Assembly (NCBI GenBank): GCA_964245825.1
Contig: CAXTNT010000002.1
Location: 223,728-287,727, forward strand
DNA: 64,000 nucleotides
Direction: 5' to 3'
Origin: an uncultured bacterium
Lineage (GTDB): Bacteria; Actinomycetota; Actinomycetes; Mycobacteriales; CAJCIY01
The stretch's first letter is position 1; each line of letters opens with the position of its first letter. The translations under genes were made by a program, and so were the position numbers. Positions 3,172-38,945 of this stretch are shown one piece after another. The notes under the pieces are model-generated. The model saw nothing but the letters and a program-made list of their open reading frames with translations, did no database searches and was not told where the DNA came from.

Positions 3172-3293
3172 GCACGCTCCACGGGTGCGGGCCGGCCTCC
3201 GGATGGTCCCGGCTGGGCCGAACCGTAGGGGTTCCGTGTGACAACCGTGTTGCGCGCACTGAACCAGGCGGCCAGTGGGTACGGACGTCCTGC

Positions 3294-4004
3294 ATGAGCC
3301 ACTCCCCGCCCCGCGAGCCCGAGGCCACCTGGGCACTGACGCTGCCCGTCGCCGACGAGCCGAGGGCGGTGGTCCTGGTCCTGCACGGGGGCAGGGCGGT
3401 CAGCCACGACCGGTCGAGCGGGCGCCACCTGTCCGCGGCCCGGATGGTCCCGGCCGCGCATGCGCTGCGCCGCGGGACGACGGAGCTGGACGCGGAGGTA
3501 CGACTGCTGCGCTACCGCTACCGGGGCTGGAATCGCACCGAGGCCTCGCCCGTAACCGACGCCCACTGGGCGCTGGCCCAGCTGCGCGAGCAGCGGCCGG
3601 GCCTGCCCATCGTGCTGGTCGGGCACTCGATGGGGGGCCGGGCTGCCCTGCGGGTGGCCGGTGACCCCTCGGTCGTCGGCGTCGTGGCCCTCGCGCCCTG
3701 GTGCGACCGCGGCGACCCGGTGTCCCAGCTCGCCGGCCAGCGGGTGCGGATCCTGCACGGCACCCGGGACCGCTGGACCAGCCCGGCAGCCTCCCAGGCC
3801 TTCGCACACGCCGCGACCGCCGTCGGCGCCGACGTGCGCTGGGTCGCCATGGGCCCGGTCGGGCACTTCATGCTCCGCGGGTACGGCCGGTGGCAGGAGC
3901 TGACCTCGTACCTGGTGCTCGACGCGCTGCTGGCGGCCGGGGTGGACGGCACGCCACAATCGGTACCGCGGCGAACCGGTGCGGCGCGGGCGACGAACGA
4001 CTAA
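3294..4004 (+). CDS. Alpha/beta-hydrolase fold protein (esterase/lipase-like)
   Basis: Nucleophile-elbow motif GHSMGG in a 236-aa ORF with downstream Asp/His candidates (ILHGTRDRW, GHFM). The start is uncertain. Confidence 0.7.
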   Translation: MSHSPPREPEATWALTLPVADEPRAVVLVLHGGRAVSHDRSSGRHLSAARMVPAAHALRRGTTELDAEVRLLRYRYRGWNRTEASPVTDAHWALAQLREQRPGLPIVLVGHSMGGRAALRVAGDPSVVGVVALAPWCDRGDPVSQLAGQRVRILHGTRDRWTSPAASQAFAHAATAVGADVRWVAMGPVGHFMLRGYGRWQELTSYLVLDALLAAGVDGTPQSVPRRTGAARATND

Positions 4005-4036
4005 GCAAGACCTTCCCTGCCGGCGAGAGGACCACC

Positions 4037-5305
4037 GTGAGCACCGACCACCCGCGCCCCACGGTCGCCGTGGTGGGCTCGGGCGTCGCCGGTCTCACCG
4101 CCGCCTGGGCGCTGCACACCAGCCGCGACGTCACGCTCTACGAGGCCGACGACCGGCTCGGCGGCCACGCGCACACCCACGAGCGGACCGGTCCCAGCGG
4201 TCGCACCGTCGCGGTCGACACCGGGTTCATCGTGCACAACCGGCGCACGTACCCGACTCTGCTGCGGCTGTTCGCCGACCTCGGCGTCCAGACCCAGGAG
4301 TCGGAGATGTCGATGTCCGTGCGCTGCGACGGGTGTGGGCTGGAGTACGCCGGGGCCAGGCGGCTGCCGGGACTGTTCGCGCAGGGCGTGCGGTCGCTGC
4401 GACCGCGCTACCTGCGGATGCTGGTCGAGATCAAGCGGTTCCACCGGCAGGCCACCGCGCTGCTCGCGCGGGAGGGCGACGAGATGGAGCTCGGCGAATT
4501 CCTCGACCGGGGCGGCTACTCGCGCTACTTCCGCACCCACTTCATGGTGCCGGTCGTCGCGGCCGTCTGGTCGACCGCGCCGTCGCAGGCGTTGCGGTAC
4601 CCGGCCCGCTACCTGCTCTCGTTCCTGGACAACCACGGGATGCTGACCGTCACCGGGTCGCCAACCTGGCGCACGGTCGTCGGCGGCTCCGGTACGTATG
4701 TGGAGCGCGTCGCCAAGGAGCTCGCGGCGGTCCGCACGTCGGCGCCGGTGACCGCCGTCCGGCGCGGCCTCGACCACGTCGAGATCACCGCCGACGGGCG
4801 CAGCGAGTCCTACGACGCCGTGGTGATCGCGACCCACCCGCACCAGGCGCTCGCGCTGCTGGCAGACCCCACGGCGGCAGAGACCGAGCTGCTCGGCGCG
4901 ATCACGTACACGGTGAACGACACCGTGCTGCACGACGACACCTCGATCCTGCCGACCGCCCCCGGCGCGGCGGCGTCCTGGAACGTCCGGATCGCCGGCT
5001 GCGGCGCGGACGAGGACGCGGTGCTGGTCAGCTACGACATGAACCGGCTGCAGCGCCTCGACACCCCGGACCGGTACGTGGTGAGCCTCAACGCCGACGG
5101 CCGCATCGACGACGCGCGCGTGCTGGCGCGGATGACCTACGAGCACCCGCTCTACACGACCGCCTCGGTCGCGGCGCAGCGTCGGCTGCCCGAGATCACC
5201 ACCGGCCGGACCGCGTTCGCCGGCGCCTACCACGGCTGGGGCTTCCACGAGGACGGCGCCCTTTCGGGGCTACGCGCGGCCGAGTCGCTCGGGGCGACGT
5301 GGTGA
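4037..5305 (+). CDS. NAD(P)/FAD-dependent oxidoreductase (amine-oxidase-like Rossmann flavoprotein) of the cfa/DUF1365 cluster
   Basis: GTG start preceded by a gagagga RBS. It carries the dinucleotide-binding motif VAVVGSGVAGLTAAWAL...LYEADDRLGGHAHTHE and is 422 aa. The 5' part of the 534-aa ORF overlaps the hydrolase in another frame. Confidence 0.8.
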   Translation: MSTDHPRPTVAVVGSGVAGLTAAWALHTSRDVTLYEADDRLGGHAHTHERTGPSGRTVAVDTGFIVHNRRTYPTLLRLFADLGVQTQESEMSMSVRCDGCGLEYAGARRLPGLFAQGVRSLRPRYLRMLVEIKRFHRQATALLAREGDEMELGEFLDRGGYSRYFRTHFMVPVVAAVWSTAPSQALRYPARYLLSFLDNHGMLTVTGSPTWRTVVGGSGTYVERVAKELAAVRTSAPVTAVRRGLDHVEITADGRSESYDAVVIATHPHQALALLADPTAAETELLGAITYTVNDTVLHDDTSILPTAPGAAASWNVRIAGCGADEDAVLVSYDMNRLQRLDTPDRYVVSLNADGRIDDARVLARMTYEHPLYTTASVAAQRRLPEITTGRTAFAGAYHGWGFHEDGALSGLRAAESLGATW

Positions 5306-6078: not shown

Positions 6079-7355
6079 CCGCCACCATCTCTGCGCCCAC
6101 CTACCGCCACGCCGCGGTCGACCCGGCGCTGTGGCCGGACATCGCCCGGGTACCGCGCAAGCCGCTCCGCGCCACGATTGCCAAGGCCCTGCTGACGCGG
6201 GCGGCGGAGCGGCTCGCGCTGCGGTTCCAGTTGCCGGGTGGAGACCTCCGCGGCGGCGGCGACGCGTCGTCCCCGCTGATGATGGTGACCGATCCTGACG
6301 CGGTGTACGCGCGGCTGGGCAACAACGGTCTGGTCGGTTTCGGCGAGGCGTACATGGCCGGGGACTGGGACACCGACGACCTCGCCGGCCTGCTCACCGT
6401 CTTCGCCGGCAGTGTGGCCTCGCTGGTCCCGCCCCGCCTGCAGGGCTTCCGGCGGCTCGCGGTGCTGGCGCAGCCGGCCAGCGAGCGCAACACCACGCAC
6501 AACTCGCGCACCAACATCAGCCGGCACTACGACCTGTCCAACGACATGTTCGAGACGTTCCTCGACGAGACGATGACCTACTCCTCGGCACTGTTCGAGG
6601 CCGGCCCCGACGGCGCGCTGGTCGCTACCGAGGCCGAGCTCGCGGACGCCCAGCGACGCAAGGTCGACCGGTTGCTCGACGGAGTGGGCGTCGGCCCCGG
6701 GACCGAACTGCTGGAGATCGGCACCGGCTGGGGCGAGCTGTCGCTGCGCGCGGCCGAGCGGGGGGCGCGGGTCACCTCGCTCACGCTGTCGAGCGAGCAG
6801 CGCGCGCTGGCGCAGCAGCGCATCGCCGCCGCGGGCCTGTCCGACCGGGTGACCGTCGAGCTGCGCGACTACCGCGCCCAGCAGGGGCAATTCGACGCTG
6901 TGGTCTCCGTCGAGATGATCGAGGCCGTCGGCTACGACTACTGGCCGGTCTACTTCGCCACCCTCGACCGCCTGCTGCGTCCGGGCGGGAGGGTCGGGCT
7001 GCAGGCGATCACGATGCCGCACGAGCGGATGCTGGCCTCACGCAACACCTACACCTGGATCCACAAGTACATCTTCCCGGGCGGAATCATCCCCTCGACC
7101 ACCTCGATCGAGCACAACGTGCGGACCGACACCTCGCTGACGGTCACCGACGCGTTCGCGTTCGGGCCGAGCTACGCCGAGACGCTGCGGCTGTGGCGGG
7201 CGCGCTTCGACGGGCAGGCCGCGCAGGTCGAGGCGCTGGGGTTCGACGAGACCTTCCGCCGGATGTGGGCGTTCTACCTCGCCTACTCGGAGGCCGGCTT
7301 CCGCAGCGGCTACCTCGACGTCTACCAGTACGTGCTGACGAAGGCCGCGGCATGA
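6075..7355 (+). CDS. Cyclopropane-fatty-acyl-phospholipid-synthase-family SAM-dependent methyltransferase (paralog 1)
   Basis: CFAS-family blocks (HYDLSNDMFETFLDETMTYSSALF) and the SAM motif LLEIGTGWGELSL; 426 aa. The start and stop overlap both neighbours. Confidence 0.85.
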   Translation: MTATISAPTYRHAAVDPALWPDIARVPRKPLRATIAKALLTRAAERLALRFQLPGGDLRGGGDASSPLMMVTDPDAVYARLGNNGLVGFGEAYMAGDWDTDDLAGLLTVFAGSVASLVPPRLQGFRRLAVLAQPASERNTTHNSRTNISRHYDLSNDMFETFLDETMTYSSALFEAGPDGALVATEAELADAQRRKVDRLLDGVGVGPGTELLEIGTGWGELSLRAAERGARVTSLTLSSEQRALAQQRIAAAGLSDRVTVELRDYRAQQGQFDAVVSVEMIEAVGYDYWPVYFATLDRLLRPGGRVGLQAITMPHERMLASRNTYTWIHKYIFPGGIIPSTTSIEHNVRTDTSLTVTDAFAFGPSYAETLRLWRARFDGQAAQVEALGFDETFRRMWAFYLAYSEAGFRSGYLDVYQYVLTKAAA

Positions 7356-23273: not shown

Positions 23274-24569
23274 TCAGTAGCCCCGAGGGTCGGGGTCGTA
23301 GGTCATGCCCGGCTCGGCCACCGCACCCACTCCTGGGGTCGCGTTCCGCAGCGCGAGCCGGAGGATCGAGTCAGCGGCCTGCCGACCGCTCTGACCCGTG
23401 TTCGACATCCGGGCCGCGATCATCCCGGCCACGATCGGAGTCGAGAAGGAGGTGCCGCTCCAGGTGGCCATGCCGTTGCTGAACTCGGCGGTCTGCCCGA
23501 TGCGCGGTGGCTCCCGGTAGAGGTACGTGCCGTCGGGATAGGCGTTGACGATGTCGCGTCCGACGGCGTACACGTCGACCCAGCTGCCGTGGTCGGAGAA
23601 GTCGGCGCGGGTTCCGTCTCGTTCCAGCGCGCCGACGGAGACGGCCCAGGGAAAGGCGGCGGGCCAGAACGGCTGCCGGCTGCTGTTATTGCCCGCCGCT
23701 GCGACCAGGACTGCGCCCTTGGCGTACCGCAGCCTGTGCTCCCAGAGGACCTCGAACCCCAGCGGCGGCAGGTCGTGGCGGGTCGTGCCGCCTGCGGACA
23801 TGCTGATCACGTCGGGCGTCCGGTCCATGGCGTGGGCCAGCTGACGGAGCATGCCGGACTCCGTGACGGCACCGGCCCGGTTGAGCAGGTCCTCCACGTG
23901 CACGTCGGCGTACGGCGCCAGACACCGGACGACCCCGGCCACGAACGTGCCATGTCCGACGTACGGACCGATGTCCGTCGGATCGTACGGCTCCGGCTGC
24001 CCGGTGACGCCGGACAGCCAGCCGTGCTGGGCGTCTTCCAGGGCCAGGATCAGACCGGTGTCCACGACCTCGACCCGACACCCCTGACCACCGGCGCCGC
24101 CGGCCGGGGCGAGGGAGACCGGCGGGTCCGGATCGACGGACGGGACGGGCGTGGGCTCCGTCGCCGGGCAACAGCTGCGGGGTGTGACGTAGAAGATGTG
24201 GTCAGGGGTCGCGATGCCGACGCCGAGGGCCGCGTCGATCGCCGCTAGCGCGGCCAACGTCGTCAGCCCCTCGGGCGCATAGGCGGTCAGGCCGTTCACC
24301 AGCGCGTCGACGACCCGGCCCGGGACTTCCGCGCGTACCCGCTCGAGGTCCTCGTCACGAACCAGGATGCGGCCTTCGACATAGAGGTACTCCATGTCCG
24401 CCGGCCGCCCCGGCGGGTAGACCGCCGCGCCCTCGATCGCCGACAGGATGAGCTCGACCTGGATCCCCAGTCGTTCGCGCTGCCAGTCCCGCCCCGGCCG
24501 CTGGCGGCCGCCGTCACCGGGCTGGCCGCGTTTCGCCACGGAGCCGCCGCTGTCGGCCATCGCGATCAC
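23274..24569 (-). CDS. S8-family serine peptidase (subtilase) with no signal peptide, predicted cytoplasmic
   Basis: Catalytic triad blocks: D (VEVVDTGL), H (HGTFVAGVV) and S (GTSFSTPIVAG). There is an N-terminal ~130-aa non-catalytic domain with no hydrophobic leader. Confidence 0.85.
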   Translation of the reverse strand: MIAMADSGGSVAKRGQPGDGGRQRPGRDWQRERLGIQVELILSAIEGAAVYPPGRPADMEYLYVEGRILVRDEDLERVRAEVPGRVVDALVNGLTAYAPEGLTTLAALAAIDAALGVGIATPDHIFYVTPRSCCPATEPTPVPSVDPDPPVSLAPAGGAGGQGCRVEVVDTGLILALEDAQHGWLSGVTGQPEPYDPTDIGPYVGHGTFVAGVVRCLAPYADVHVEDLLNRAGAVTESGMLRQLAHAMDRTPDVISMSAGGTTRHDLPPLGFEVLWEHRLRYAKGAVLVAAAGNNSSRQPFWPAAFPWAVSVGALERDGTRADFSDHGSWVDVYAVGRDIVNAYPDGTYLYREPPRIGQTAEFSNGMATWSGTSFSTPIVAGMIAARMSNTGQSGRQAADSILRLALRNATPGVGAVAEPGMTYDPDPRGY

Positions 24570-24687
24570 CTCGTTCGCAGGGAAAAGCGATGTCTACCAT
24601 CGCGACGTGGCAGCGGAAAGGTCCGGCAGCGTCGCCGACGTCCAGGCCACCGCACCCCGATGGCCAGCGGGACCGGACCTCCTGGCG

Positions 24688-27243
24688 ATGGCTCTGTCGA
24701 CTCCCGCGCAGGCGCTCGAGCTGGCCCACCGAACCCTGGCGGCGGATCCCGATGACGGCGCCGCGTCCTATGCGCACCAGGCGGCCGGCATCGTGCTGCG
24801 TGATCGAGGGGAGCTGTCCACGGCGTTGCCCGAGCTGCGTGCCGCGCTCCGTAGTGCGCGCCGGTCCGGCGCACGCGAACGTGTCGTCGACGTCCAGGCG
24901 ACGCTGGGCGCCGCGGAGGCGATGGCCGGCCACAGCGGGCGGGGTCTGGCCCGGCTGGAGTCGGCTGCCCAGGATGCCCATGGCTTGCTGCTGGCCACGG
25001 TGCGGCTCCGGCGGGCGTACGTACTGGGTGACCTCGGCCGGTTCGAGGAGGCGCTGCGCGATCTCCGGTTGGCACTGCGGGCAGCACGTCGGTGCGGAGA
25101 CCGGCTCTGGGAGGCGCGCATCCTCCACAACCGCGCGTGGACCTGGCTCGCCATCGGAGCGCTGGGCCGAGCCGATGCGGATGCAGCCGCCGCCGGGCGC
25201 CTGTTCGACCAGCTGGGTCAGACGTTGGAATCGGTGCAGGCTCAGCACAATCGGGCCGCCGTGGCCGCGGGGCGGGGGGACCTCCCACGAGCGCTGCACC
25301 TGCTGGACGCCGCGGAGTCCCGGTACCAGACACTCGGGGTCTTCGAGCCGGAGCTGGTCGTCAACAGGGGGCACGTCCTGCTCGCGGCAGGGCTCGCCAC
25401 GGAGGCCGCGGCCGCGGCCGAGGCCGCGATCGTGGGGGGCACGTCGCACCCCGTCCACCACGCCGAGCTCCTGCTGTTCGCGGCCAGGGCGGCCCTGGCG
25501 GCCGAGCAGCCCGAGCGCGCGCAGCGGTGGGCCCGCGCCGCGCTCCGGCTCTTCAAATCCCAGCAGCGTCCCGGCTGGGTGCTGCGGGCGCGGCTCCTGC
25601 ACTGCCAGGCCCGGTACGCCCACGGCGACCGGACACACCGGCTTCTCGCCGCGGCGGCGCAGGTCGCCGAGCAGCTGCGCGAGCGCGACGACGAGGAGGC
25701 CGCCTTGGCCTTCCTGCTCGCCGCCCGGCTGGCGCAGGCCCGGGGCCAGGACGCACTGGGTGCGTCGAGCCTGCGAAGCGCGGCGGGCTACCGCCGGCGC
25801 GGGTCGGCCCTGACGCGCGCCACCGGATGGCTGGCGGCAGCCATGGAGCATGCGTCGGTCGGTGACGAGCGGGGTCTGCTGTCCGCCTGCGGGCGGGGGC
25901 TCGACGCGCTGGACGAGCACCGGCTGCTGTTCGGCGCCGCCGAGATCCGGGCCATCGCCACCTGGCACGGCCGCGATCTGGCCTCCTTCGCCATCGACGC
26001 CGCCAGTCGGCGGGCCTCCCCTCGCTTGATGCTGACCTGGACCGAGCGCTCCCGCGCGATCTCGCTGGCCGAGCCGTCGGTGCGGGCACAGCCCGACCCC
26101 GAGCTGGAGCAGGAGCTCGGCGCCGTCCGCGACGCGGCGAGGCGTTGTGCGGACGCGGAGCGGAGCGGCGCCGGAGTGACGAGCGCGCTGCAGCAACGCG
26201 ACGCTGGCGAGCGCGCGGTACGCCGGCGGCGTCGCCAGCTCTCGGGCTCCACCGGCTCGGTCCCGCGGCTCGACATCGAGCTCCTGTTGGCGGAGCTCGG
26301 GGCCGCCACGCTGCTTTCGCTGGTGGAGACGGGCGGGCGCCTGCAGGTGTTGCAGGTCGGCCACGGTCGGGTGCGCCGGCATGACGTCGGACCGGTCTCC
26401 GCTGCGGTCAGGGAGCTCGACTACGTGCTGTTCGCCCTGCGCCGGGCCGCGTACGGGCGCGCCGGCGGGACGGCGGCGCTGGCTGCCCGGCTGGAGCAGG
26501 CGGTGCTCGGAGCTGTCGGACGGGTTGTGCCCGACGGTCCCGTGGTCGTGGTGCCGTCCACCCGGTTCCACGCCCTGCCGTGGGGATTGCTGCCCGCACT
26601 GGCAGACCGGCCGGTGGCGGTGGCGCCGTCGGCGCAGGTGTGGCAACGCGCGGCCTGCGCCGCCACGCGTCCGTGCCCGGACCGACGGGTGCTGCTGGTC
26701 GCCGGACCCGACCTGGGAACCCGAGCCGCCGAGGTCGTCGCGCTGGCGTCGGTGCACGCGTCGCCAGAGGTGGTCGGTCGTGCGGCAGCTGCCCCCGCTG
26801 CCACCGTCGACCGCGTCGTGGCCGGCATGAACGGCGCCTGGGTCGCGCACATTGCTGCGCACGGCGACTTCCGCGCCGACAGCCCGCTGTTCTCCTCGGT
26901 ACGACTCGACGACGGCGCGCTGTTCGTGCACGACCTCGACCGGGTCCGGCAGGCGCCCCGCACCGTCGTGCTGTCCGCGTGCGAGACCGGGGTCGGGGTC
27001 CCGGTAGGTACGCAGGAGCTGCTCGGACTGGTCAGCGGCCTGCTGCGGGCGGGGACCGCGAGCGTGTGTGCCAGCGTCGTGCCGGTACACGACGCTGCGG
27101 CGATCCCCATCGTGTCGGCCGTGCACCGGGCCCTGGCCGACGGCAGGACGCTGCCGGAAGCGGCCCTGGCCGGTCGGCGCGCCGCAGCCGGCGACGAGCT
27201 GGCGGTCTGCACCGCCGCCTCGTTCAGCGTCTGGGGTGCCTAG
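24688..27243 (+). CDS. Tetratricopeptide-like helical repeat protein with a C-terminal CHAT (caspase-like) domain
   Basis: About 600 aa of Ala/Leu/Arg-rich TPR-like repeats, then a CHAT domain with a His/Cys dyad (GAWVAHIAAHGDF ... VVLSACETGVG). It is transcribed divergently from the S8 gene (118-bp spacer). The start is taken as the first ATG after the spacer; an upstream GTG is possible. Confidence 0.8.
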   Translation: MALSTPAQALELAHRTLAADPDDGAASYAHQAAGIVLRDRGELSTALPELRAALRSARRSGARERVVDVQATLGAAEAMAGHSGRGLARLESAAQDAHGLLLATVRLRRAYVLGDLGRFEEALRDLRLALRAARRCGDRLWEARILHNRAWTWLAIGALGRADADAAAAGRLFDQLGQTLESVQAQHNRAAVAAGRGDLPRALHLLDAAESRYQTLGVFEPELVVNRGHVLLAAGLATEAAAAAEAAIVGGTSHPVHHAELLLFAARAALAAEQPERAQRWARAALRLFKSQQRPGWVLRARLLHCQARYAHGDRTHRLLAAAAQVAEQLRERDDEEAALAFLLAARLAQARGQDALGASSLRSAAGYRRRGSALTRATGWLAAAMEHASVGDERGLLSACGRGLDALDEHRLLFGAAEIRAIATWHGRDLASFAIDAASRRASPRLMLTWTERSRAISLAEPSVRAQPDPELEQELGAVRDAARRCADAERSGAGVTSALQQRDAGERAVRRRRRQLSGSTGSVPRLDIELLLAELGAATLLSLVETGGRLQVLQVGHGRVRRHDVGPVSAAVRELDYVLFALRRAAYGRAGGTAALAARLEQAVLGAVGRVVPDGPVVVVPSTRFHALPWGLLPALADRPVAVAPSAQVWQRAACAATRPCPDRRVLLVAGPDLGTRAAEVVALASVHASPEVVGRAAAAPAATVDRVVAGMNGAWVAHIAAHGDFRADSPLFSSVRLDDGALFVHDLDRVRQAPRTVVLSACETGVGVPVGTQELLGLVSGLLRAGTASVCASVVPVHDAAAIPIVSAVHRALADGRTLPEAALAGRRAAAGDELAVCTAASFSVWGA

Positions 27244-27273: not shown

Positions 27274-27741
27274 TCAGAGGCGTACCCACGCGGTGGTGAT
27301 GCGGCGTCCTCCGAGTCGGAAGCGTACGAGGGCGTCGGGAACGGTCGCGAACGCGAAGCGCGCATCCGCGTCGACGACCGACGTGACGAGCGCTCCGTCG
27401 GCCGCTTCGAGCACGACCTCCGTGACCTCTCCGGCGGCGACGCCGTCGACGAGGCCGAGCAGGGAACGCCGACCCCCGTCCCCGACGACCTGGATGTCGA
27501 TCGTGATCCCCGCGCACTGGAACGACACCAGCCGTATCTCGGCCGCCCCGGCACGGACGGTGCCGGCAGCGGTGAGGGAGTCGGCCACCAGCGTCGCCAG
27601 CTCGTCGTCGAGATGGCGCCGACCGAAGACGCCGCGGCCGAGCTCGTAGGTCAGCTCGGGAACGGGATCGATCACGCGGGCGATGTCAGCCAGCCGCGCG
27701 AGCAGGTCCTCTTCCTCGGGCGACGACGTCGGTCCGGTCAC
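27274..27741 (-). CDS. Hypothetical protein co-transcribed with the ECF sigma factor (candidate anti-sigma/regulatory partner, no TM segment)
   Basis: 155 aa with protein-like composition; the overlapping alternative ORFs are R/P/S-rich junk. Its start overlaps the sigma-factor stop by 4 nt. Confidence 0.55.
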   Translation of the reverse strand: MTGPTSSPEEEDLLARLADIARVIDPVPELTYELGRGVFGRRHLDDELATLVADSLTAAGTVRAGAAEIRLVSFQCAGITIDIQVVGDGGRRSLLGLVDGVAAGEVTEVVLEAADGALVTSVVDADARFAFATVPDALVRFRLGGRRITTAWVRL

Positions 27742-28391
27742 GGTGATCCCTCCGCTGTGGCGGTGCCGAAGGCGTAGCCGCTGGCGGCCAGCAGCTCACG
27801 CAGCCGGTCGAGGCAGCGCATGCGGGTGGGTCCGATGGAGCCGATCGGCAGGCCCAGCGCGGTCGAGATCTCGGCGTAACTGGTGCGCTCGACCGACATC
27901 AGGACGCGGAGCAGGGTCTGGCATCGCGCGGACAGCCCGCCGAAGCTCTGCCACAGGGCGGCGTCGCGCTCGGCCAGGAGCAGGTGATGGTCGACGGGTG
28001 GTGCCCCCTCGTCCGGGACCTCGAGCATGGCCTCGTCACTCCACTCGGGTGCTTCCCGCCCGGACCGCCTGAGCGTCGCCAGACATTCGCGCCGCGCCGT
28101 CGTCGCCAGCCAACCGGCCAGCGTCTCCGGATCGCGGATGGTGTCGAGGTTCTCCAACAGCCGGAGCCAGGTCGTCTGGATGACGTCGGCCGCAGCGCCG
28201 GTGTCGAGCCGGTACGCCCGGCCTATCGACCAGAGCAGGTTGGTGAACCGGTCGACGAGGAGGTTCCACGCGAGCTCGTCGCCGTCCGCGGCTCGTCGCA
28301 CGAGCTCCGTCAGGTCGTCGGGTGCCGGCACGACGGAGTCGTCCTCACAGGAGCTGACCCACCTCGCAGTCCCGACCGCACAGCTCATCAT
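27738..28391 (-). CDS. ECF-type (sigma-70 family) RNA polymerase sigma factor
   Basis: Sigma region 2 (LVRRAADGDELAWNLLVDRFTNLLWSIGRAY ... DVIQTTWLRL) and a region 4 helix-turn-helix (SYAEISTALGLPIGSIGPTRMRCLDRLR). Confidence 0.85.
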   Translation of the reverse strand: MMSCAVGTARWVSSCEDDSVVPAPDDLTELVRRAADGDELAWNLLVDRFTNLLWSIGRAYRLDTGAAADVIQTTWLRLLENLDTIRDPETLAGWLATTARRECLATLRRSGREAPEWSDEAMLEVPDEGAPPVDHHLLLAERDAALWQSFGGLSARCQTLLRVLMSVERTSYAEISTALGLPIGSIGPTRMRCLDRLRELLAASGYAFGTATAEGSP

Positions 28392-28531
28392 GGCATCCGA
28401 CGCATCCCGTCTGGGTTCCGCCCGCCGCCGACGACGAACACGTGAACGAGAGGCGCGGGTGACGCGGGTGATACATCCCGTCTCCCTCTCGTCCGGGCAA
28501 ACCGGGCGGGCACGCCTCTAGGGTCGGTGCC

Positions 28532-29272
28532 GTGCGCGGTCCGGCGGTCTCCGACCCGATGACCGACGCGATGTCCGAGGACGCCGTCTGCCTGGCCCTG
28601 CTGGCCGCCGGTGCCCTGAGCGTGCGGGACGTCGACGCCGGCGAGGAGCCCTTCCTGTACAGCTCGGGCAACCACGGACCCGGGTACGTGATGGTGAAGG
28701 CGCTGGTCGCACGGCAGGCCGTGTTCCGGGCGCTGATCGACGCCCTGGCCGCGAAGCTCATCGACGCCGGGGTGCCCTTCGACCACGTCATCGGCAACGC
28801 GACCGGCGGGATGATCCCGGCGTACGCGCTCCGGGAGGCCTACCAACGCCGTAGCGGCCGGACCGACGTGGAGTACGTGTACGTGCGGGGCGCTCGGAAG
28901 GAGGGCGGTCACCGCGAGCTGGTCACCGGACTCGAGCACATCGCCCCGCGTACGCAGGCCGGCGCGCCATCCTCCTGGCTCGTCGTGGAGGACATGGTCA
29001 ACTTCGCCGAGACCCCGGTGAACTCGCTGCTGCTGCTGCGCAGTCTCGGCTTCGTGGCCCGGGAGGCCGCCGCGATCCTGCACGTCGACCAGCCCGAGGG
29101 GAACCGGCGGCTGCGCGCGCACGATGTCCGCCTGACCACCCTGACCTCCATGCCCCGACTGCTGGACGTCGCCGTCCGGGAGGGGTACGCCGGTCGCAGC
29201 GCCGTCGAGGGATACCGCGCCTACCTCGAGGACCCGGGCGGCTGGCAGCGGGCCAGGGGCCTCGGCGGATGA
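28532..29272 (+). CDS. Orotate-phosphoribosyltransferase-like type I PRTase with a degenerate PRPP loop
   Basis: It has the PyrE-like hood (EPFLYSSGNHGPGYV) and a flexible-loop region YVRGARKEGGHRELVTG that aligns with the PyrE loop (VRKSAKAHG..LIEG). The PRPP motif reads LVVEDMVNFAETPVNS instead of the canonical VVDDVxTTG. The start is uncertain (three in-frame Met candidates). Confidence 0.65.
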   Translation: MRGPAVSDPMTDAMSEDAVCLALLAAGALSVRDVDAGEEPFLYSSGNHGPGYVMVKALVARQAVFRALIDALAAKLIDAGVPFDHVIGNATGGMIPAYALREAYQRRSGRTDVEYVYVRGARKEGGHRELVTGLEHIAPRTQAGAPSSWLVVEDMVNFAETPVNSLLLLRSLGFVAREAAAILHVDQPEGNRRLRAHDVRLTTLTSMPRLLDVAVREGYAGRSAVEGYRAYLEDPGGWQRARGLGG

Positions 29273-29970
29273 GCCTGCTGTACGTCGGCCTCGACGGCGG
29301 CAAGCGGGAGGGCAACCTGGCGCTTGCCCATGAGCTGGCCGCGACCACCGACGGCGAGATCGGGTTCAAGGTCAACCTGGACCATGCGCTGGTGTGGGGG
29401 GAGTCGTACATCGCCGCGGTCGTCGCCTTGGGGCGCCCCGTGTTCGTCGACCTCAAGATGAACAACGGTCCGCGCACGATGAGCACGGTGGTGCGGTGGC
29501 TCGGCAGTCTCGGCGTGACGCACACCGATGTCTGGGCGTACGCCGAGAGCAACCTCACCCGGACCCTCGAGGAGCTGGCGGGGGTCACCGACCGGCCGGC
29601 CATCTTCGCGGCGACCTTCTACACCCGGTGGGACGAGGCGTACGCCCAGACGCATCACCGGATGTCGGTGGACGCGCTGATCGGCCACTGGGCGCGGGTG
29701 GCCGTCGAGCACGGCGCAGAGGGGGTCATCGTCCCCGCCACGCGGCTGGTGGCCCTCGGCGACCTGTCCACCGTCCGGATGAGTCCCGGCATCCGGCTGC
29801 CCGGGCAGCGGACGGGGAGTGCCCAGCAGCACGTCGCCACACCCGGGGAGGCACTGCTCGCCGGTGCGGACATCCTGGTGATGGGCAGCCCCATCCAACA
29901 GGCTCCGGACCCCGTCGCGGCGCTCGCCGAGGTGCTCGCCGCGATGCGCCGGGTCGAGGCGGCATCCTGA
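29269..29970 (+). CDS. Orotidine-5'-phosphate-decarboxylase-like TIM-barrel protein (OMPDC suprafamily)
   Basis: VGLDGG ... FKVNLD ... VFVDLKMNNGP gives the D-x-K-x-x-D-like catalytic arrangement. It is 233 aa and overlaps the PRTase-like gene by 4 nt. Confidence 0.65.
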   Translation: MSLLYVGLDGGKREGNLALAHELAATTDGEIGFKVNLDHALVWGESYIAAVVALGRPVFVDLKMNNGPRTMSTVVRWLGSLGVTHTDVWAYAESNLTRTLEELAGVTDRPAIFAATFYTRWDEAYAQTHHRMSVDALIGHWARVAVEHGAEGVIVPATRLVALGDLSTVRMSPGIRLPGQRTGSAQQHVATPGEALLAGADILVMGSPIQQAPDPVAALAEVLAAMRRVEAAS

Positions 29971-30020
29971 CTGGGCCGCGCAGGGCGAGACTGGGGGCGA
30001 ACCCCGACCCAGGAGCTGAC

Positions 30021-30356
30021 ATGGACCAGAGCCAGGCACAGGAACTTCTCGCCGCCGACCGGACGCGGGTGCAGGAGCTGCTCGCGGACACGGTCGCCGC
30101 CGGCCGCGAGGACCGGCTGGCCGAGGCAGAGCCCGGCGACATGGAAGACCCGGCGCAGGCGCTGGGACAGCAGGGCGTCGACGACGCGGTGGCGGCCAGC
30201 CTCCGCGAGCGCCTGGCCGCGATCGAGCGGGCCGAGCAGCGCCTGCGCGACGGGACGTACGGGGTGTCGACGCGCAGCGGTGCGCCCATCCCCGACGAAC
30301 GCCTCCGGGCCGACCCCACGGCGGAGCTCACCGTCGAGGAGGCGGCCAGCTCCTGA
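30021..30356 (+). CDS. DksA/TraR-family-like protein lacking the Cys4 zinc finger
   Basis: RBS aggag precedes the ATG. The coiled-coil and C-terminal pattern RLAAIERAEQRLRDGTYGVSTRSGAPIPDERLRADPTAEL matches the TraR/DksA zinc-finger region, but with the Cys positions replaced. Confidence 0.55.
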   Translation: MDQSQAQELLAADRTRVQELLADTVAAGREDRLAEAEPGDMEDPAQALGQQGVDDAVAASLRERLAAIERAEQRLRDGTYGVSTRSGAPIPDERLRADPTAELTVEEAASS

Positions 30357-30481
30357 GTCCCAGCCGATCGACAACGCCACCTCCCCCCTCCCTCTCCGCC
30401 GAGATGCGGCGTGTTCACCACGACACGCCGCCCCCTGCGTACATCTCCCACATCTCGGCGACGAAGGGGGCCGGGCTCAGC

Positions 30482-31879
30482 TCAACCCGACGCCGCGCGG
30501 AGTCGGGCCGCCGCGCACAGCGCAGGCAACTGCGTCACCTCCTCGTCGGCCTCGTGTACGTCGCGGTCCCGCAGGGCGGCTCGCATCCTCGGCCCGGCGG
30601 TGTCCAGGTGCACCGTGGCCAGCCGCAGCCGTCGCTGCACCGGACCCTGCGTCCGCCGGATGCTCTGCACCTTCTCTAGCGGCACCCAGTGGCTGACCCG
30701 GCGCAGCCGGCCGCTGCAGGTGGCGACGCAGCTCGCGTTTCTTCCGACCGACAGCCGGTGGTAGCTCAGCGGTGCCTTCCAGCGGGCCCGGCCCGGCGCC
30801 TTGACCTGGGTCACCGCGAGGTCCTGCAGGACCAGGCCCATCACCTGGTACGCCTGCGCGTAGCTGCCGACAGGCAACAGTGCCCGCCGCCGTGAGCCCT
30901 GGGCGCCGTCCTCCTGGCGGCTGCGCTTGCCCGCGACCGCCGCCTCGACGCGGCACCACCCGAAAGGCCGCCACAGCAGCGGTTCCACCACGCGCAGCGC
31001 CTGTACCCGACCTGGCGGCAGGAGCTCGGTGGTGGTCTGGATCAACCCCGACCGTAGCTCCAGGCCCCGGCCCGACCGGAGCACGGTCAGGTGGAACTCT
31101 CCGTTGAAGCGGCGCCACAGCGCGGTGCCGAGCCCGATCAGGAAGACCGCGCCACTCCCGACCAGGGCACCTGCGGCGGCTGGGCTGAAGACGGCGGTGA
31201 CGAGGACGGCGGTGAGGTAGAGCGCCGCGAACAGTCCGCTCACGCTCAACAAGAGCGAGGCGACGAGCCGGCCGGCAGCCACGCGCAGGACGAGGGCGCC
31301 CGCCTCGCCCGGTGCCGCGGTGGCGGCTGACGCGGTGGCGGCTGGTGCGGTGGCGGCTGGTGCGGTGGCGGCTGGTGCGGCGCCGGCTGGTGCGGTGCCG
31401 GCAGTCGTGGCGCCGGCGTGTGCGGGCAGTGCCAGCAGCTGTTCGCGCAGCGCGCGCGCGTCGGCGTTCGGCAGGCAGGCGAGTCGGCCTTTGCCGCTGC
31501 CGCCGGCCATCCGCAGCCGCAGCTCGGCCAGGCCCAGCACCCGGGCCAGGCCGGTCTGCACCACGTCGATGGCCTGGACCTGACGGAGCGGATAGCGCTG
31601 GCTGCTGCGCCGGAGCAGGCCTGTCTCGATGCGCAGGTCGGCGCCCTCGACCCGCCACCGCGTCACCAGCCAGGAGACGACGCCGGCGAGCAGGGCGATC
31701 CCGACCCCGGCCGCGTCGACGAGCAGTCCGGCGAGGTCCCGGTGGCTGGTGAGCAACCGCGGGATCGCGAGCACGAGCAGCAGGATCAGCGCCCGCCCAC
31801 CCCGTATCAGCGGAGAGAGGGGATGCAGCCGGTGCCACCCTTCGAGCCCGTCGCCGGACGGCGCAGGCGGCGCGGTCAC
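30482..31879 (-). CDS. YdbT-like membrane protein with repeated bacterial PH (bPH_2) domains
   Basis: A GTG start overlapping the YdbS stop (GTGA). It has TM hairpins alternating with three bPH-like modules, plus an internal Ala/Thr/Pro linker encoded by 15-bp tandem repeats. Confidence 0.7.
   Translation of the reverse strand: MTAPPAPSGDGLEGWHRLHPLSPLIRGGRALILLLVLAIPRLLTSHRDLAGLLVDAAGVGIALLAGVVSWLVTRWRVEGADLRIETGLLRRSSQRYPLRQVQAIDVVQTGLARVLGLAELRLRMAGGSGKGRLACLPNADARALREQLLALPAHAGATTAGTAPAGAAPAATAPAATAPAATASAATAAPGEAGALVLRVAAGRLVASLLLSVSGLFAALYLTAVLVTAVFSPAAAGALVGSGAVFLIGLGTALWRRFNGEFHLTVLRSGRGLELRSGLIQTTTELLPPGRVQALRVVEPLLWRPFGWCRVEAAVAGKRSRQEDGAQGSRRRALLPVGSYAQAYQVMGLVLQDLAVTQVKAPGRARWKAPLSYHRLSVGRNASCVATCSGRLRRVSHWVPLEKVQSIRRTQGPVQRRLRLATVHLDTAGPRMRAALRDRDVHEADEEVTQLPALCAAARLRAASG
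31316..31410. repeat. In-frame tandem repeat of a 15-bp unit (gcggtggcggctggt, ~6 copies with variants) inside the YdbT-like gene
   Basis: Read directly; it encodes the (TAPAA)n-like low-complexity linker. Confidence 0.8.
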
Positions 31880-32388
31880 AGGCCCATGCTCCGGGCCTCG
31901 CCGCGTTCGGCCAGCGCGTCGCGCAGTCGCTGGGCATCGGCACCGGCCAGGCCGGGGATGCGGGCGTCGCTCGCGGCGGCGGCGGTGTGCAGCCGCACGG
32001 TCGAGAGCCCGAAGGCCCGCTCGAACGGCCCGGCGCTCACGTCCACGAACTGCATCCGGCCGTACGGGACCACCGACAGCCGCCGGAACATCAGCCCCCG
32101 CCGTACCAGCAGGTCGTCCTGGCGCTCCAGATAGCCCCAGGCCCGGACGCGCCGGTGGCTCAGCAACAGCGCCGCCGAGCCCAGGGCCACGGTGATCGCT
32201 CCGAGGACCAGCGCCGTCACCCGGTTGCCGGCCAGCAGCGGCAGCACGACGAGCACGACCAGGACCGCGGCCGTGACGAGCCCCACCTGCGTGCGCCGCA
32301 CCAGCAGCAGCCGGGGTGAGGGGTGCTGCCACGCGAGGCCGTCATCCACGGCGCACAGTGTGACCCGGCGTCGGCCCGCTTCGCTCAA
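31876..32388 (-). CDS. YdbS-like bPH_2-domain membrane protein
   Basis: 170 aa with a two-TM hairpin followed by a PH-like domain (GYLERQDDLLVRRGLMFRRLSVVPYGRMQFVDV). Confidence 0.7.
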   Translation of the reverse strand: MSEAGRRRVTLCAVDDGLAWQHPSPRLLLVRRTQVGLVTAAVLVVLVVLPLLAGNRVTALVLGAITVALGSAALLLSHRRVRAWGYLERQDDLLVRRGLMFRRLSVVPYGRMQFVDVSAGPFERAFGLSTVRLHTAAAASDARIPGLAGADAQRLRDALAERGEARSMGL

Positions 32389-32481
32389 GACGGCCGCGGC
32401 CGGCGCCGATGCCCAGAGGGTCTGTCGTCAGCAGACTCCGGCGGTACGGCGACCGGACAGCGCGAAGGTCGGGGAGCCCGG

Positions 32482-33579
32482 ATGGCTGGCTGTGTCGGCT
32501 GCACGTGTCAGCGCAGCCCGGGTGTCGGAACCGGCGGTTGGGTCTTCTTGGCCAGCCGCGTCTCGCACACCGTCGCCGCCCTGGAGTCGGTGCTGGCCCG
32601 TACGGAGGCCTCGGTCACCCGGCGGGCACCCGGACTGCTCGCAGCCGCCACCACCGACCCGAGCGGCCTGCTCGCCGCGGCACGCGCCGCGCTGACGGCG
32701 ACCGAGGCCGAGGAGGTTCGCGCGGCCGTGCTGGGCGACCTCGACCACGATGACCTGCTGGCAGCGGCCTTCACCGCGCCGACGCTCGCGCAGTGCGGCG
32801 CGCGGGTCGACCATGCCCGCCTGCTGCCGCTGCTCGACGACGAGCTGAACGCCTTCCACTCGGTGTACCAGCCGATCGTGTCCCTGCGGCCGGAGGCCGG
32901 TCACGCCGTGGTCGGCCACGAGGCACTGCTGCGGGCGACCGGCCCCGACGGTCCGGTCCTGCCCGACCAGATGTTCGCCGCCGCGTCTGCCGCCGGCTGG
33001 CTGCACGCCCTGGATCGCGTCGGCCGCACGACCGCGCTCCGCGGGGCGGCTGGCTGGCTCGGCGACGATCTGCTGTTCGTCAACTTCGTCCCGACCACGA
33101 TCTACCGGCCCGAGGTGTGCCTGCGGACCACCGAACAGGCCGCCCGGACCGCCGGGCTGCGTTTGGACCAGCTCGTCTTCGAGGTGACCGAGAGCGAGCG
33201 GGTCACGGACATCGACCACCTGAGCTTCGTGTTCGACTACTACCGGCGACGCGGCTGCCGGGTGGCGCTGGACGACCTGGGCTCCGGCTTCTCCTCGCTG
33301 AACCTGCTGGTGCGGCTGCGCCCCGACGTGGTCAAGCTGGACAAGGAGTTGGTGCAGGGTCTACCCGACCCGGTCAACACCGCGGTCGTCGCGGCGATCG
33401 TGCAGATGACGCACAGCTACGGCGGATCGGTGCTCGCCGAGTGCATCGAGACCGCGGAGCAGGCGGCCTCGGCCACCGACCTCGGCGTGGACCTGGGTCA
33501 GGGCTGGTTCTTCGGCCGTCCGCAACCACGGACACGAGCGGCCACCGGGACTCGTCCCGTCCTGACCCCGGCCGGCTAG
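32482..33579 (+). CDS. EAL-domain c-di-GMP phosphodiesterase (stand-alone EAL with an N-terminal uncharacterised region)
   Basis: SVYQPIVSL, EALLR, FEVTESE, LDDLGSGFSSL, KLDKELV and GQGWFFGRP match an intact EAL catalytic set. The start is uncertain; a GTG at 32323 opens the ORF. Confidence 0.8.
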   Translation: MAGCVGCTCQRSPGVGTGGWVFLASRVSHTVAALESVLARTEASVTRRAPGLLAAATTDPSGLLAAARAALTATEAEEVRAAVLGDLDHDDLLAAAFTAPTLAQCGARVDHARLLPLLDDELNAFHSVYQPIVSLRPEAGHAVVGHEALLRATGPDGPVLPDQMFAAASAAGWLHALDRVGRTTALRGAAGWLGDDLLFVNFVPTTIYRPEVCLRTTEQAARTAGLRLDQLVFEVTESERVTDIDHLSFVFDYYRRRGCRVALDDLGSGFSSLNLLVRLRPDVVKLDKELVQGLPDPVNTAVVAAIVQMTHSYGGSVLAECIETAEQAASATDLGVDLGQGWFFGRPQPRTRAATGTRPVLTPAG

Positions 33580-33691
33580 GACCCACGACCACTCGGATCG
33601 GCACACTCGGGCGGCGTTGGGGGCGCCGAGGAAGGAACGGCACCGGCAACAGTTCGGGATCGCCCGTCGGCGGTTGTGGTGCGATGGCCCG

Positions 33692-35230
33692 GTGACACCC
33701 GTCGTCGTCGGCATCGGTCCGCTCGCCCCGGCGGACGTCCTCGCGGTGGCGCGGCACCAGGCACCCGTCGTGCTTTCCCCACCGGCACTTGCCGCCGTCG
33801 CCGCGACCCGTGCGGTGATCGAGGCACTGGCGGAGGACCCTGAACCGCACTACGGAATCTCGACCGGCTTCGGGGCGCTGGCGGCCCGGCACATCCCGGT
33901 CGCCTCGCGCGCCCGGCTGCAGCGCAGCCTGGTTCGGTCGCACGCCGCCGGCAGCGGAGCCGAGGTCGAGACCGAGGTCGTCCGCGCGCTCATGCTGCTA
34001 AGGCTCTCGACGCTTGCCACCGGGCGGACCGGCGTTCGGCCGGCCACCGCCCAGGCGTACGTGGAGATGCTGAACGCCGGGATCACCCCCGTCGTCTACG
34101 AGTACGGCTCGCTCGGCTGCTCGGGTGACCTCGCGCCGCTGGCCCACGTCGCCCTGGCCGCGATGGGCGAGGGACCGGTGCGGGTACGGGACGGTGAGCC
34201 GGTGCCGGCGGCGGAAGCCCTTGCGGCACAGGGCCTTTCGCCCGTCGTGCTAGCCGAGAAGGAGGGCCTGGCCCTCATCAACGGCACCGACGGCATGCTC
34301 GGGATGCTGGTGCTCGCGCTGCACGACCTGACCGCGCTGCTCAAGGTCGCCGACGTGACGGCGGCGATGAGCGTCGAGGCACTGCTGGCCACCGACGCCG
34401 TGTTCGCCGCCGACCTGCAGGCGCTGCGCCCGCAGACCGGACAGGCGCTGTCCGCGGCGAACCTGCGCACCCTCCTGGGCGGCTCCGCGATCATGGCCAG
34501 CCACCGCGAGCCCGGCTCGTGTACGCGGGTGCAGGACGCGTACTCCCTGCGGTGCTCCCCGCAGGTGCACGGCGGTGCCCGCGACACGGTCGACCATGCG
34601 GCGCTGGTCGCCGGCCGGGAGCTGGCCAGCGCCATCGACAACCCCGTCGTCACCCTCGACGGCCGGGTCGAGTCGAACGGCAACTTCCACGGCGCGCCCG
34701 TCGCGTACGTGCTGGACTTCCTCGCGATCGTCGCGGCCGACGTGGCCTCGATCAGCGAGCGGCGTACCGACCGGATGCTGGACGCGCACCGCAGCGCGGG
34801 CCTGCCGCCGTTCCTCGCCGACGACCCCGGCGTGGACTCCGGCCACATGATCGTCCAGTACACCCAGGCGGCGATCGTCAGCGAGCTCAAGCGGCTGGCC
34901 GCGCCGGCGTCGGTCGACTCCATCCCGTCGTCGGGGATGCAGGAGGACCACGTCTCGATGGGCTGGTCCGCCGCCCGCAAGCTGCGGCGCTCGGTGGACG
35001 GGCTGACCCGGGTGCTCGCGATCGAGCTGCTGACCGCGGCCCGCGCGCTGGACCTGCGGACGCCGCTGACCCCCGCACCCGCGACGGCGGCGGCGGTGGC
35101 GGCGCTGCGCGCGATGGTCGCCGGTCCGGGGCCCGACCGCCACCTCGCGCCCGAGATCGAGGCGGCGGTCGCGCTCGTACGCGGCGGACTGCTCGACGCG
35201 GTCGAAGCCGTCACCGGTCCGCTCGCCTGA
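33692..35230 (+). CDS. hutH: Histidine ammonia-lyase
   Basis: An MIO-enzyme family protein (YGISTGFGALA, GSLGCSGDLAPLAH, NGTDGMLG). The N-terminal GTG is chosen to match the canonical ~510-aa length. Confidence 0.85.
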   Translation: MTPVVVGIGPLAPADVLAVARHQAPVVLSPPALAAVAATRAVIEALAEDPEPHYGISTGFGALAARHIPVASRARLQRSLVRSHAAGSGAEVETEVVRALMLLRLSTLATGRTGVRPATAQAYVEMLNAGITPVVYEYGSLGCSGDLAPLAHVALAAMGEGPVRVRDGEPVPAAEALAAQGLSPVVLAEKEGLALINGTDGMLGMLVLALHDLTALLKVADVTAAMSVEALLATDAVFAADLQALRPQTGQALSAANLRTLLGGSAIMASHREPGSCTRVQDAYSLRCSPQVHGGARDTVDHAALVAGRELASAIDNPVVTLDGRVESNGNFHGAPVAYVLDFLAIVAADVASISERRTDRMLDAHRSAGLPPFLADDPGVDSGHMIVQYTQAAIVSELKRLAAPASVDSIPSSGMQEDHVSMGWSAARKLRRSVDGLTRVLAIELLTAARALDLRTPLTPAPATAAAVAALRAMVAGPGPDRHLAPEIEAAVALVRGGLLDAVEAVTGPLA

Positions 35231-37178: not shown

Positions 37179-37292
37179 CGGCCGCGCGCATACCCGTCGC
37201 GCGCCGTCGCCGTCGGACACGTGATCAACGCTACGCGCCCCGGTGCGACCGGGCAGACTGCAGACCCGGCCCGCTGGCGTAAGGAGATCGGA

Positions 37293-38941
<1,649 letters not shown>

Positions 38942-38945
<4 letters not shown>

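Follow-up and report, generated by a model that had tools for sequence, protein, structure and literature searches.

A divergent PyrE/PyrF-like gene pair in an actinomycete points to a CPR/DPANN-type route from orotate to UMP

Introduction

We wondered what an actinomycete might gain from two overlapping genes that resemble pyrE and pyrF without being canonical copies of either. The genes lie in a stretch of 64,000 nucleotides (contig CAXTNT010000002.1 of assembly GCA_964245825.1, positions 223,728 to 287,727; hereafter the window) from an uncultured member of the Mycobacteriales. They encode a type-I phosphoribosyltransferase (PRTase) related to orotate phosphoribosyltransferase (OPRT, PyrE) and a (beta/alpha)8 barrel related to orotidine 5'-monophosphate (OMP) decarboxylase (OMPDC, PyrF). 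An earlier sequence-only reading of this DNA had taken the altered loop for binding phosphoribosyl pyrophosphate (PRPP) as a sign that the pair forms and decarboxylates a nucleotide other than that of orotate. It had proposed a comparison of both proteins with PyrE, PyrF, 3-keto-L-gulonate 6-phosphate decarboxylase (KGPDC) and 3-hexulose 6-phosphate synthase (HPS), an alignment of the catalytic residues and a survey of the distribution of the pair. Having made these comparisons, we arrive at a different substrate. The two proteins probably constitute a self-contained module of a divergent OPRT and a divergent OMPDC, a xenolog of the type found in bacteria of the candidate phyla radiation (CPR) and in DPANN archaea, which would lead from orotate to uridine 5'-monophosphate (UMP). 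The first enzyme would convert orotate and PRPP to OMP and the second would convert OMP to UMP. The support comprises homology, fold, a family signature, gene fusion, synteny with pyrB, pyrC and pyrD in relatives, and phylogenetic position.

The question reaches beyond this locus. OMPDC is the textbook case of extreme catalytic proficiency, and its DxKxxD motif and the arginine that grips the phosphodianion of the substrate are treated as universal and essential (PMC12874384). The motif is described as present in OMPDC from all organisms, the D96'A variant of the yeast enzyme has no detectable activity, and the R235A variant costs 5.6 kcal/mol (PMC12874384). A natural family that resides in pyrimidine operons with Asn and Ser at these two positions and with a relocated Arg would test what the residues really contribute.

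Results

Two coupled genes with predicted OPRT and OMPDC folds

Both open reading frames (ORFs) are present, and the stop codon of the PRTase gene and the start codon of the decarboxylase gene share a 4-bp ATGA, from which translational coupling is predicted, as the sequence-only reading had stated. Because every homolog alignment begins at residue 10-14 of the longest PRTase ORF, the real start is probably the ATG at 28559 or 28571 rather than the GTG at 28532. The G+C content at third codon positions (GC3) is 0.927 in both genes against about 0.49 at second positions (GC2), in a window of about 72% G+C; this coding signature equals or exceeds that of the neighbouring genes, and the codon usage of the pair is native to the genome.

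The PRTase barely reached the cut-off of the general Pfam family (PF00156, Pribosyltran; 26.7 versus 26.3 bits) and stayed below that of each NCBIfam OPRT model (NF001729, 55 against 245 bits; TIGR00336, 33 against 107; TIGR01367, 36 against 150). By sequence, its only solved relatives are OPRTs (4ohc, E = 2e-7). The AlphaFold (AF2) model, with a predicted local distance difference test score (pLDDT) of 94.4, had OPRTs as all of its top 44 Foldseek matches in the PDB, the best being the Burkholderia enzyme 4ohc (template modelling (TM) score 0.81-0.86). The modelled fold lies within PyrE/OPRT and is unlike any other PRTase class. The best match in both sequence and fold is the OPRT type of Burkholderia and alpha-proteobacteria (NF001729; 4ohc, 9e5g), with which the protein shares a length of about 230 residues and a C-terminal helical extension that ends in a conserved Trp. 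It differs from this type in having only 24% identity and motifs of its own. Invariant across its family are EPFLYSSGN, GNATGG, an R-x-x-R-K-x-G-G-H loop, VVEELVNFAET (with the distinctive VNFAET) and a C-terminal PxxWQxxRG.

The PyrE-like flexible loop YVRGARKEGGHRELVTG that had been pointed out earlier is indeed there. Its YVRGARKEGGH segment has the conserved Arg and Lys of the OPRT catalytic loop, and in the PRTase family alignment (A3) R106, K110, G112 and G113 are invariant and R109 is nearly so (numbering from M14). The degenerate PRPP-binding loop LVVEDMVNFAETPVNS is present as well. It retains the acidic Glu-Asp pair, E140 is family-invariant, and the rest departs from the classical signature; the family consensus reads VVEELVNFAETTxNS. 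None of 120 PRTase family members matches that signature, for which E. coli PyrE served as the validating case. The argument that had been built on this loop is weak, however, because the closest true OPRT type, the bona fide Burkholderia-type enzyme (4ohc), fails the signature likewise.

The decarboxylase clearly matched the Pfam family OMPdecase (PF00215; 75.6 bits, cut-off 27) and scored below the PyrF equivalog cut-offs (NF001273, 107 against 193 bits; TIGR01740, 64 against 92.3). By sequence, its only solved relatives are OMPDCs (3tr2, E = 7e-15). With the AF2 model (pLDDT 94.5), the best Foldseek matches were 8cso, 3ru6, 1dbt and 1eix (TM 0.80-0.86, E about 1e-17), all type-1 bacterial OMPDCs at about 25% identity, and the top 50 structural matches listed were OMPDC chains, some of them deposited under other titles. 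The model has the same (beta/alpha)8 fold as PyrF of E. coli (1eix), B. subtilis (1dbt) and K. pneumoniae (8cso), with a TM score of about 0.85 and equal length, and would sit inside the PyrF fold rather than with KGPDC and HPS. These Mg-dependent members of the OMPDC suprafamily have the barrel and the D-x-K core in common with it. They carry a metal-binding Glu at the position where the window decarboxylase has Lys34. No KGPDC or HPS model of NCBIfam matched the decarboxylase at E <= 0.01, and an identity as KGPDC or HPS is ruled out by Lys34, the OMPDC fold matches and the hidden Markov model (HMM) results. That the pair stands apart from canonical PyrE and PyrF, and that its PRPP loop departs from the classical signature, is in line with the sequence-only reading.

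A decarboxylase active site with an exchanged aspartate and arginine

We mapped the residues of the decarboxylase onto OMPDC of E. coli (Ec), B. subtilis (Bs) and M. thermautotrophicus (Mt); residues of the yeast enzyme are marked Sc. The numbering obtained in this way agrees with the residue numbers of the literature, and the E. coli part of the map was confirmed by alignment with 1eix. The N-terminal Asp and the Lys-Asp-Lys core are kept and family-invariant: D9 (Mt D20), K34 (Mt K42), D61 (Mt D70) and K63 (Mt K72). Further kept are T70 (Mt T79'), T119 (Mt S127, Bs T123), the Arg of the PGIR motif at R176 (Bs R185), Q186 (Mt Q185, Bs Q194) and G206, T119, Q186 and T70 being the base and ribose contacts of OMPDC.

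The DxKxxD motif is altered. Where OMPDC has DxKxxDIxxT, the window protein has DLKMNNGPRT: Asn66 replaces the second Asp, a residue contributed by the partner subunit (Ec D76, Bs D65, Mt D75'), Gly67 replaces Ile (Mt I76'), and Arg69 is gained just before the ribose-binding Thr70. The gripper Arg is Ser in a GSP motif that replaces GRP. R120-W121-D122, directly after the base-binding Thr119, are a family- and clade-specific addition, the family consensus being T-[RH]-[WYF]-D. Replacement of the base-binding Ser (Sc S154) by Arg or His was considered and ruled out, as the residue mapping places this Ser opposite the conserved Thr119, with Arg120 coming directly after.

These exchanges are shared by the relatives. 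Across 57 loci, Asn stands at the second-Asp position in all, Arg precedes the Thr in 55, and GSP is found in 43 of the 44 that are readable. None of 91 family proteins fits the classical OMPDC signature, as against 58 of 64 canonical ones. Among 150 representatives, Arg before Thr together with GSP, and no Arg together with GRP, co-vary near-exclusively, which suggests that the arginine may have been relocated. Judged by this alignment, the active site of the decarboxylase (DLKMNNGPRT; GSP for GRP), which the sequence-only reading had missed, is a more telling deviation than the PRPP loop.

A small family found mainly in CPR bacteria and DPANN archaea

A word-indexed search of 5.8 billion proteins returned only about 27 relatives of the decarboxylase, and a full HMM scan of 1.84 billion representatives returned 64 clusters below 1e-30. 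The top 70 or so HMM representatives carry D-x-K-M-x-N-G-x-R-T with G-S-P; below about 1e-28 the matches change abruptly to the canonical DLKxHDIPNT with GRP. More than 150 members at 40-68% identity make the PRTase family the larger of the two; its proteins are labelled 'hypothetical' at NCBI and OPRT at JGI. By these sequence criteria the pair belongs to a small, coherent family distinct from canonical PyrE and PyrF.

Almost all of its members come from CPR bacteria, among them Saccharibacteria, and from DPANN archaea; high-GC actinobacterial lineages are few. At the genome level the carriers are metagenome-assembled genomes (MAGs) of Candidatus Saccharibacteria, one Moranbacteria, one Pacearchaeota and one gammaproteobacterial MAG; a complete 737-kb Woesearchaeota genome and other Patescibacteria have it too. 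Each of the 12 loci in a first set of genomes and contigs has the two genes side by side. The same holds for 70 of 80 metagenome loci, and in most of the other ten the contig breaks off too soon. As a rule the genes overlap by 4 bp or are separated by a few to about 40 bases.

In several relatives the two domains form a single polypeptide with family-specific motifs, either with the PRTase first (P0157, P0168, P0190, P0196, P0202, P0205) or with the decarboxylase first (P0164, P0233, P0274). Fusion in both orders, and the same two-step partnership, are also known from UMP synthase (OPRT-OMPDC in eukaryotes; OMPDC-OPRT in kinetoplastids, 3qw4). Unlike UMP synthase, the window has two separate proteins, and the fused relatives bear the motifs of this family rather than canonical ones.

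Two loci depart from the usual gene size. In the Moranbacteria MAG (L010, 1852-3018) and the gammaproteobacterial MAG (L011, 6712-7911) the PRTase-like protein has 388-399 residues, and it aligns with the window protein in three segments that overlap one another, suggestive of either an insertion or a partial duplication. In L010 the decarboxylase gene is followed by one that resembles GTP cyclohydrolase II (3889-4635).

Relatives occupy the pyrE and pyrF positions of pyrimidine operons

An unbiased Pfam count over the 147 nearest neighbours at de-duplicated loci gave de novo pyrimidine synthesis as the only coherent pathway (DHO_dh, 3; OTCace, the aspartate/ornithine carbamoyltransferase family, 2; Amidohydro_1, 2). 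The Inositol_P family of CysQ type recurred as well (7), and phenylalanyl-tRNA synthetase recurred as lineage synteny. The clearest case is a 208-kb bacterial contig (L024), where the genes run pyrB-PRTase-decarboxylase-pyrC-pyrD on one strand with gaps of 1-66 bp, downstream of recA-recX-rny. All three flanking pyr genes are bona fide by score and cut-off (pyrB 338/237, pyrC 297/279, pyrD 429/267 bits), and the decarboxylase between them carries DLKLNNGPRT and GSPI. At L025 the pair stands between pyrB and pyrC, directly before the latter; at L040 a bona fide quinone-type pyrD adjoins it; and at L053 a pyrD-like gene is followed by a pyrC-like gene, the PRTase gene and the decarboxylase gene. 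In the Saccharibacteria loci L006 and L007 a divergent dihydroorotase (pyrC)-like gene (DVHAHLREPG) and a class-1 dihydroorotate dehydrogenase (pyrD)-like gene (LNVSCPNV) lie directly upstream. Judged from gene order, four independent lineages have the pair in the pyrE and pyrF slots of their pyrimidine operons.

The pyrC-like and pyrD-like genes of these two loci (L006, 4964-7119; L007, 1588-2568) likewise score well short of their equivalog cut-offs (165 against 279 and 93 against 301). In Saccharibacteria genomes of this type, automated pathway calls would miss four consecutive pyrimidine steps.

A further gene recurs beside the pair. In all nine Saccharibacteria-type loci it is directly followed by a homolog of CysQ, a 3'(2'),5'-bisphosphate nucleotidase (TIGR01331, 208-218 bits with a cut-off of 229), and five loci of more distant relatives also have a CysQ-like gene before or after the pair (L026, L030, L032, L039, L057). 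No third gene related to CysQ or inositol monophosphatase was found in the window by tblastn. The Saccharibacteria-like contig L005 has a group I intron (Rfam RF00028, 60.9 bits) at 6876-7066, just upstream of the PRTase gene.

The actinobacterial copies group with those of Saccharibacteria

The nearest relatives of the window pair are four other high-GC sequences, on contigs with actinobacterial markers (LmeA, MDMPI_N) and 65-68% G+C. The pair has thus been kept, each time with a 4-bp overlap, in at least five diverged high-GC lineages, and the window copy has all family-invariant residues. The family is very rare in Actinobacteria, with only five high-GC clusters in the search of 5.8 billion proteins. 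In a bootstrapped tree of the concatenated PRTase and decarboxylase sequences, monophyly of the actinobacterial pairs and a clade of these with the Saccharibacteria-type pairs each had 100% support, and this clade was joined to the lineage with the pyrBCD operon at 85%. Nesting of the actinobacterial clade within Saccharibacteria received 60%, as against 34% for a sister position.

Because the family is broad in CPR and DPANN organisms and rare in Actinobacteria, we infer that the transfer went into the actinobacterial lineage. It would be old, since the codon usage is native; the GC3 of the pair speaks against a recent horizontal transfer, a reading that we rejected. The hosts of cultured Saccharibacteria are all Actinobacteria (PMC9040727), and the grouping of the window copy with Saccharibacteria makes it a candidate case in which an epibiont phylum and its hosts among the Actinobacteria exchanged genes long ago.

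Discussion

Conversion of orotate via OMP to UMP is favoured over a new substrate mainly because relatives occupy the pyrE and pyrF slots in four lineages. The decarboxylase keeps the Lys-Asp-Lys core and most substrate contacts and would work with a rebuilt charge network, in which Asn stands for the partner-subunit Asp, Ser stands for the gripper Arg and the ribose-binding Thr has a new Arg before it. On balance the family members are probably true OMPDCs that do without the 'universal' DxKxxD aspartate and gripper arginine. The actinomycete copy would be a xenolog held in common with Saccharibacteria, which are epibionts of Actinobacteria, and acquired long ago. Several points weigh against this assignment. 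Catalysis in the canonical style is not guaranteed in the decarboxylase because both the second Asp and the gripper Arg are replaced, and both proteins are far below the curated PyrE and PyrF equivalog cut-offs. Since the 64-kb window has no pyrB, pyrC or pyrD (nor a second pyrE or pyrF), the pathway context comes solely from relatives that are 43-60% identical. UMP synthesis gives no explanation for the linkage to the CysQ-like gene. Full-text literature searches found no paper that describes the PRTase/decarboxylase family. A free-living actinomycete is expected to own canonical pyrE and pyrF already, and the selective value of a second pair is unexplained.

Could the pair have taken up another function? 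The PRTase might transfer the phosphoribosyl group of PRPP to some carboxylated heterocycle that is not orotate, after which the OMPDC-like enzyme might decarboxylate or otherwise transform the nucleotide, which in Saccharibacteria the CysQ-like phosphatase would then dephosphorylate, so that a nucleotide or nucleoside other than UMP results. The whole family has indeed exchanged two OMPDC residues held to be universal and essential and acquired an Arg, the R120-W121-D122 charge insertion beside the base-binding Thr is peculiar to the Saccharibacteria/actinobacterial subclade, and the CysQ-like gene is tightly linked in this subclade and recurs elsewhere in other positions. The actinomycete also probably has canonical pyrE and pyrF, and the window holds no other pyr genes. 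We nevertheless consider such a change of function rather unlikely: the pair stands in the pyrE and pyrF slots of bona fide pyr operons or beside pyrC- and pyrD-like genes in four lineages, Saccharibacteria among them, the Ser/Thr and Gln that touch the base are conserved, the classical PRPP signature is missing from the closest true OPRT type as well, and around the pair the window shows neither a biosynthetic gene cluster nor a riboswitch. The non-orotate product proposed by the sequence-only reading is accordingly not the one that we favour. Its narrower form, in which just the Saccharibacteria/actinobacterial subclade has ceased to make UMP and builds and decarboxylates another ribonucleotide from PRPP and a non-orotate heterocyclic carboxylate, appears quite improbable. 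If it were true, the more cationic active site (Asp to Asn, added Arg) would make room for a substrate with one more negative charge, and the actinomycete would have taken over from its epibiont a nucleotide or nucleoside pathway not described so far.

That the CPR-type pair has replaced canonical pyrE and pyrF, and is the sole route from orotate to UMP in the actinomycete lineage, is possible if unlikely. The genes are fully ameliorated (GC3 0.927), have been retained with their overlap in the diverged high-GC lineages described above, lie in an ordinary core chromosome location (hut genes, glucose-6-phosphate dehydrogenase, carboxyltransferase) and belong to a family that clearly acts as pyrE and pyrF in CPR operons. 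Against such a displacement stand the rarity of the family in Actinobacteria and the near-universal presence of canonical pyr genes in free-living actinomycetes. It is barely credible that the pair is a non-functional relic of a horizontal acquisition with a crippled decarboxylase active site. In favour of a relic, the decarboxylase has lost both the essential Asp and the gripper Arg, and scans for promoter and terminator consensus sequences at the pair gave no matches, though such scans are uninformative at 72% GC. The same substitutions, however, are invariant family-wide, including in genomes of 0.7-1 Mb and in intact pyr operons, and both window frames are intact, with a strong GC3 coding signature and the family-invariant residues in place.

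If the assignment as a divergent OPRT and OMPDC holds, it bears on how small genomes are read. According to most reports, CPR and DPANN organisms have no complete de novo nucleotide synthesis (PMC7786006; bioRxiv 10.64898/2026.06.21.733656). With scores below threshold and 'hypothetical' as a label, pathway reconstructions can score the PyrE and PyrF steps as absent in these organisms, and the reported lack of pyrimidine synthesis may in part be an annotation artefact.

Features of the locus and its surroundings

The coordinates of the pair, its motifs, the divergent sigma factor gene and the CysQ-like genes of relatives are collected in Table 1.

Table 1. Coordinates of the gene pair, its motifs and associated genes. 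Positions are those of the window or, for CysQ-like genes, of the named locus.
Feature	Sequence or locus	Position	Strand	Remarks
OPRT-like type-I PRTase (non-canonical PyrE)	window	28532..29272	+	246 aa, longest ORF, GTG start
PyrE-like flexible loop	YVRGARKEGGHRELVTG	28880..28930	+	aa 117-133
PRPP-binding loop	LVVEDMVNFAETPVNS	28979..29026	+	aa 150-165 of the 246-aa ORF
ATGA overlap, PRTase stop/decarboxylase start	ATGA	29269..29272	+	4 bp, read from sequence
OMPDC-like (beta/alpha)8 barrel (non-canonical PyrF)	window	29269..29970	+	233 aa, ATG start
Decarboxylase active-site motif	VDLKMNNGPRT	29446..29478	+	aa 60-70; Asp61, Lys63 and Thr70 kept
Decarboxylase base-contact motif	FYTRWDE	29617..29637	+	aa 117-123; Thr119 is the conserved pyrimidine-contacting Ser/Thr
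Decarboxylase phosphate-gripper motif	VMGSPI	29878..29895	+	aa 204-209; Ser207 replaces the phosphodianion-gripper Arg (Sc R235, Mt R203, Bs R215)
ECF sigma factor gene	window	27738..28391	-	divergent from the pair
CysQ-like gene	L001	8722-9501
CysQ-like gene	L002	8728-9510
CysQ-like gene	L004	8722-9513
CysQ-like gene	L005	8718-9482
CysQ-like gene	L006	8720-9490
CysQ-like gene	L007	4161-4925
CysQ-like gene	L008	about 1706-2482
CysQ-like gene	L009	8717-9496

An Rfam search of window positions 27600-30600 at E <= 1 returned nothing, hence no riboswitch, and a search upstream of the pair in nine related loci found no known RNA. The gene for a sigma factor of the extracytoplasmic function (ECF) type is divergent from the pair, as had been noted; the spacer, given earlier as 140 bp, measures 167-179 bp with the probable PRTase start.

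The other actinobacterial loci share only the PRTase and decarboxylase genes with the window, and the neighbourhood of ECF sigma, anti-sigma, CHAT and DksA-like genes is for that reason incidental; a functional link of the pair to any of them was rejected, none being conserved at those loci. The sigma factor gene overlaps a gene for a 155-residue protein without a family match (27274-27741, minus strand), possibly its anti-sigma factor, and this two-gene unit is convergent with the gene for a protein with tetratricopeptide repeats and a CHAT domain (24448-27243, plus strand). At 50 bp after the decarboxylase gene, a small gene (30021-30356, plus strand) has a weak match to the DksA/TraR zinc finger (19.9 bits, cut-off 24.9). 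No cysteine is evident in the matching segment, and the gene is not kept beside the pair at the other actinobacterial loci.

We also considered a natural-product cluster as the context of the pair and found none; the surroundings consist of hut genes, glucose-6-phosphate dehydrogenase, carboxyltransferase, subtilase and a nucleobase permease. The hut genes encode an aromatic amino acid lyase of HutH type (33617-35227, 604 bits) and urocanase (HutU, 37221-38942), the latter 87% identical to the urocanases of Angustibacter, Jatrophihabitans, Frankineae bacterium MT45 and Modestobacter; on this basis the actinomycete is placed near Angustibacter, Jatrophihabitans and Frankineae. The permease (1708-3336, minus strand), 25 kb from the pair, belongs to the nucleobase:cation symporter family (Pfam Transp_cyt_pur: cytosine, purines, uracil, allantoin). 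An ORF at 32323-33579 (plus strand) has features of an EAL-type cyclic-di-GMP phosphodiesterase (YQPIVSL ... EALLR), as read from its translation alone.

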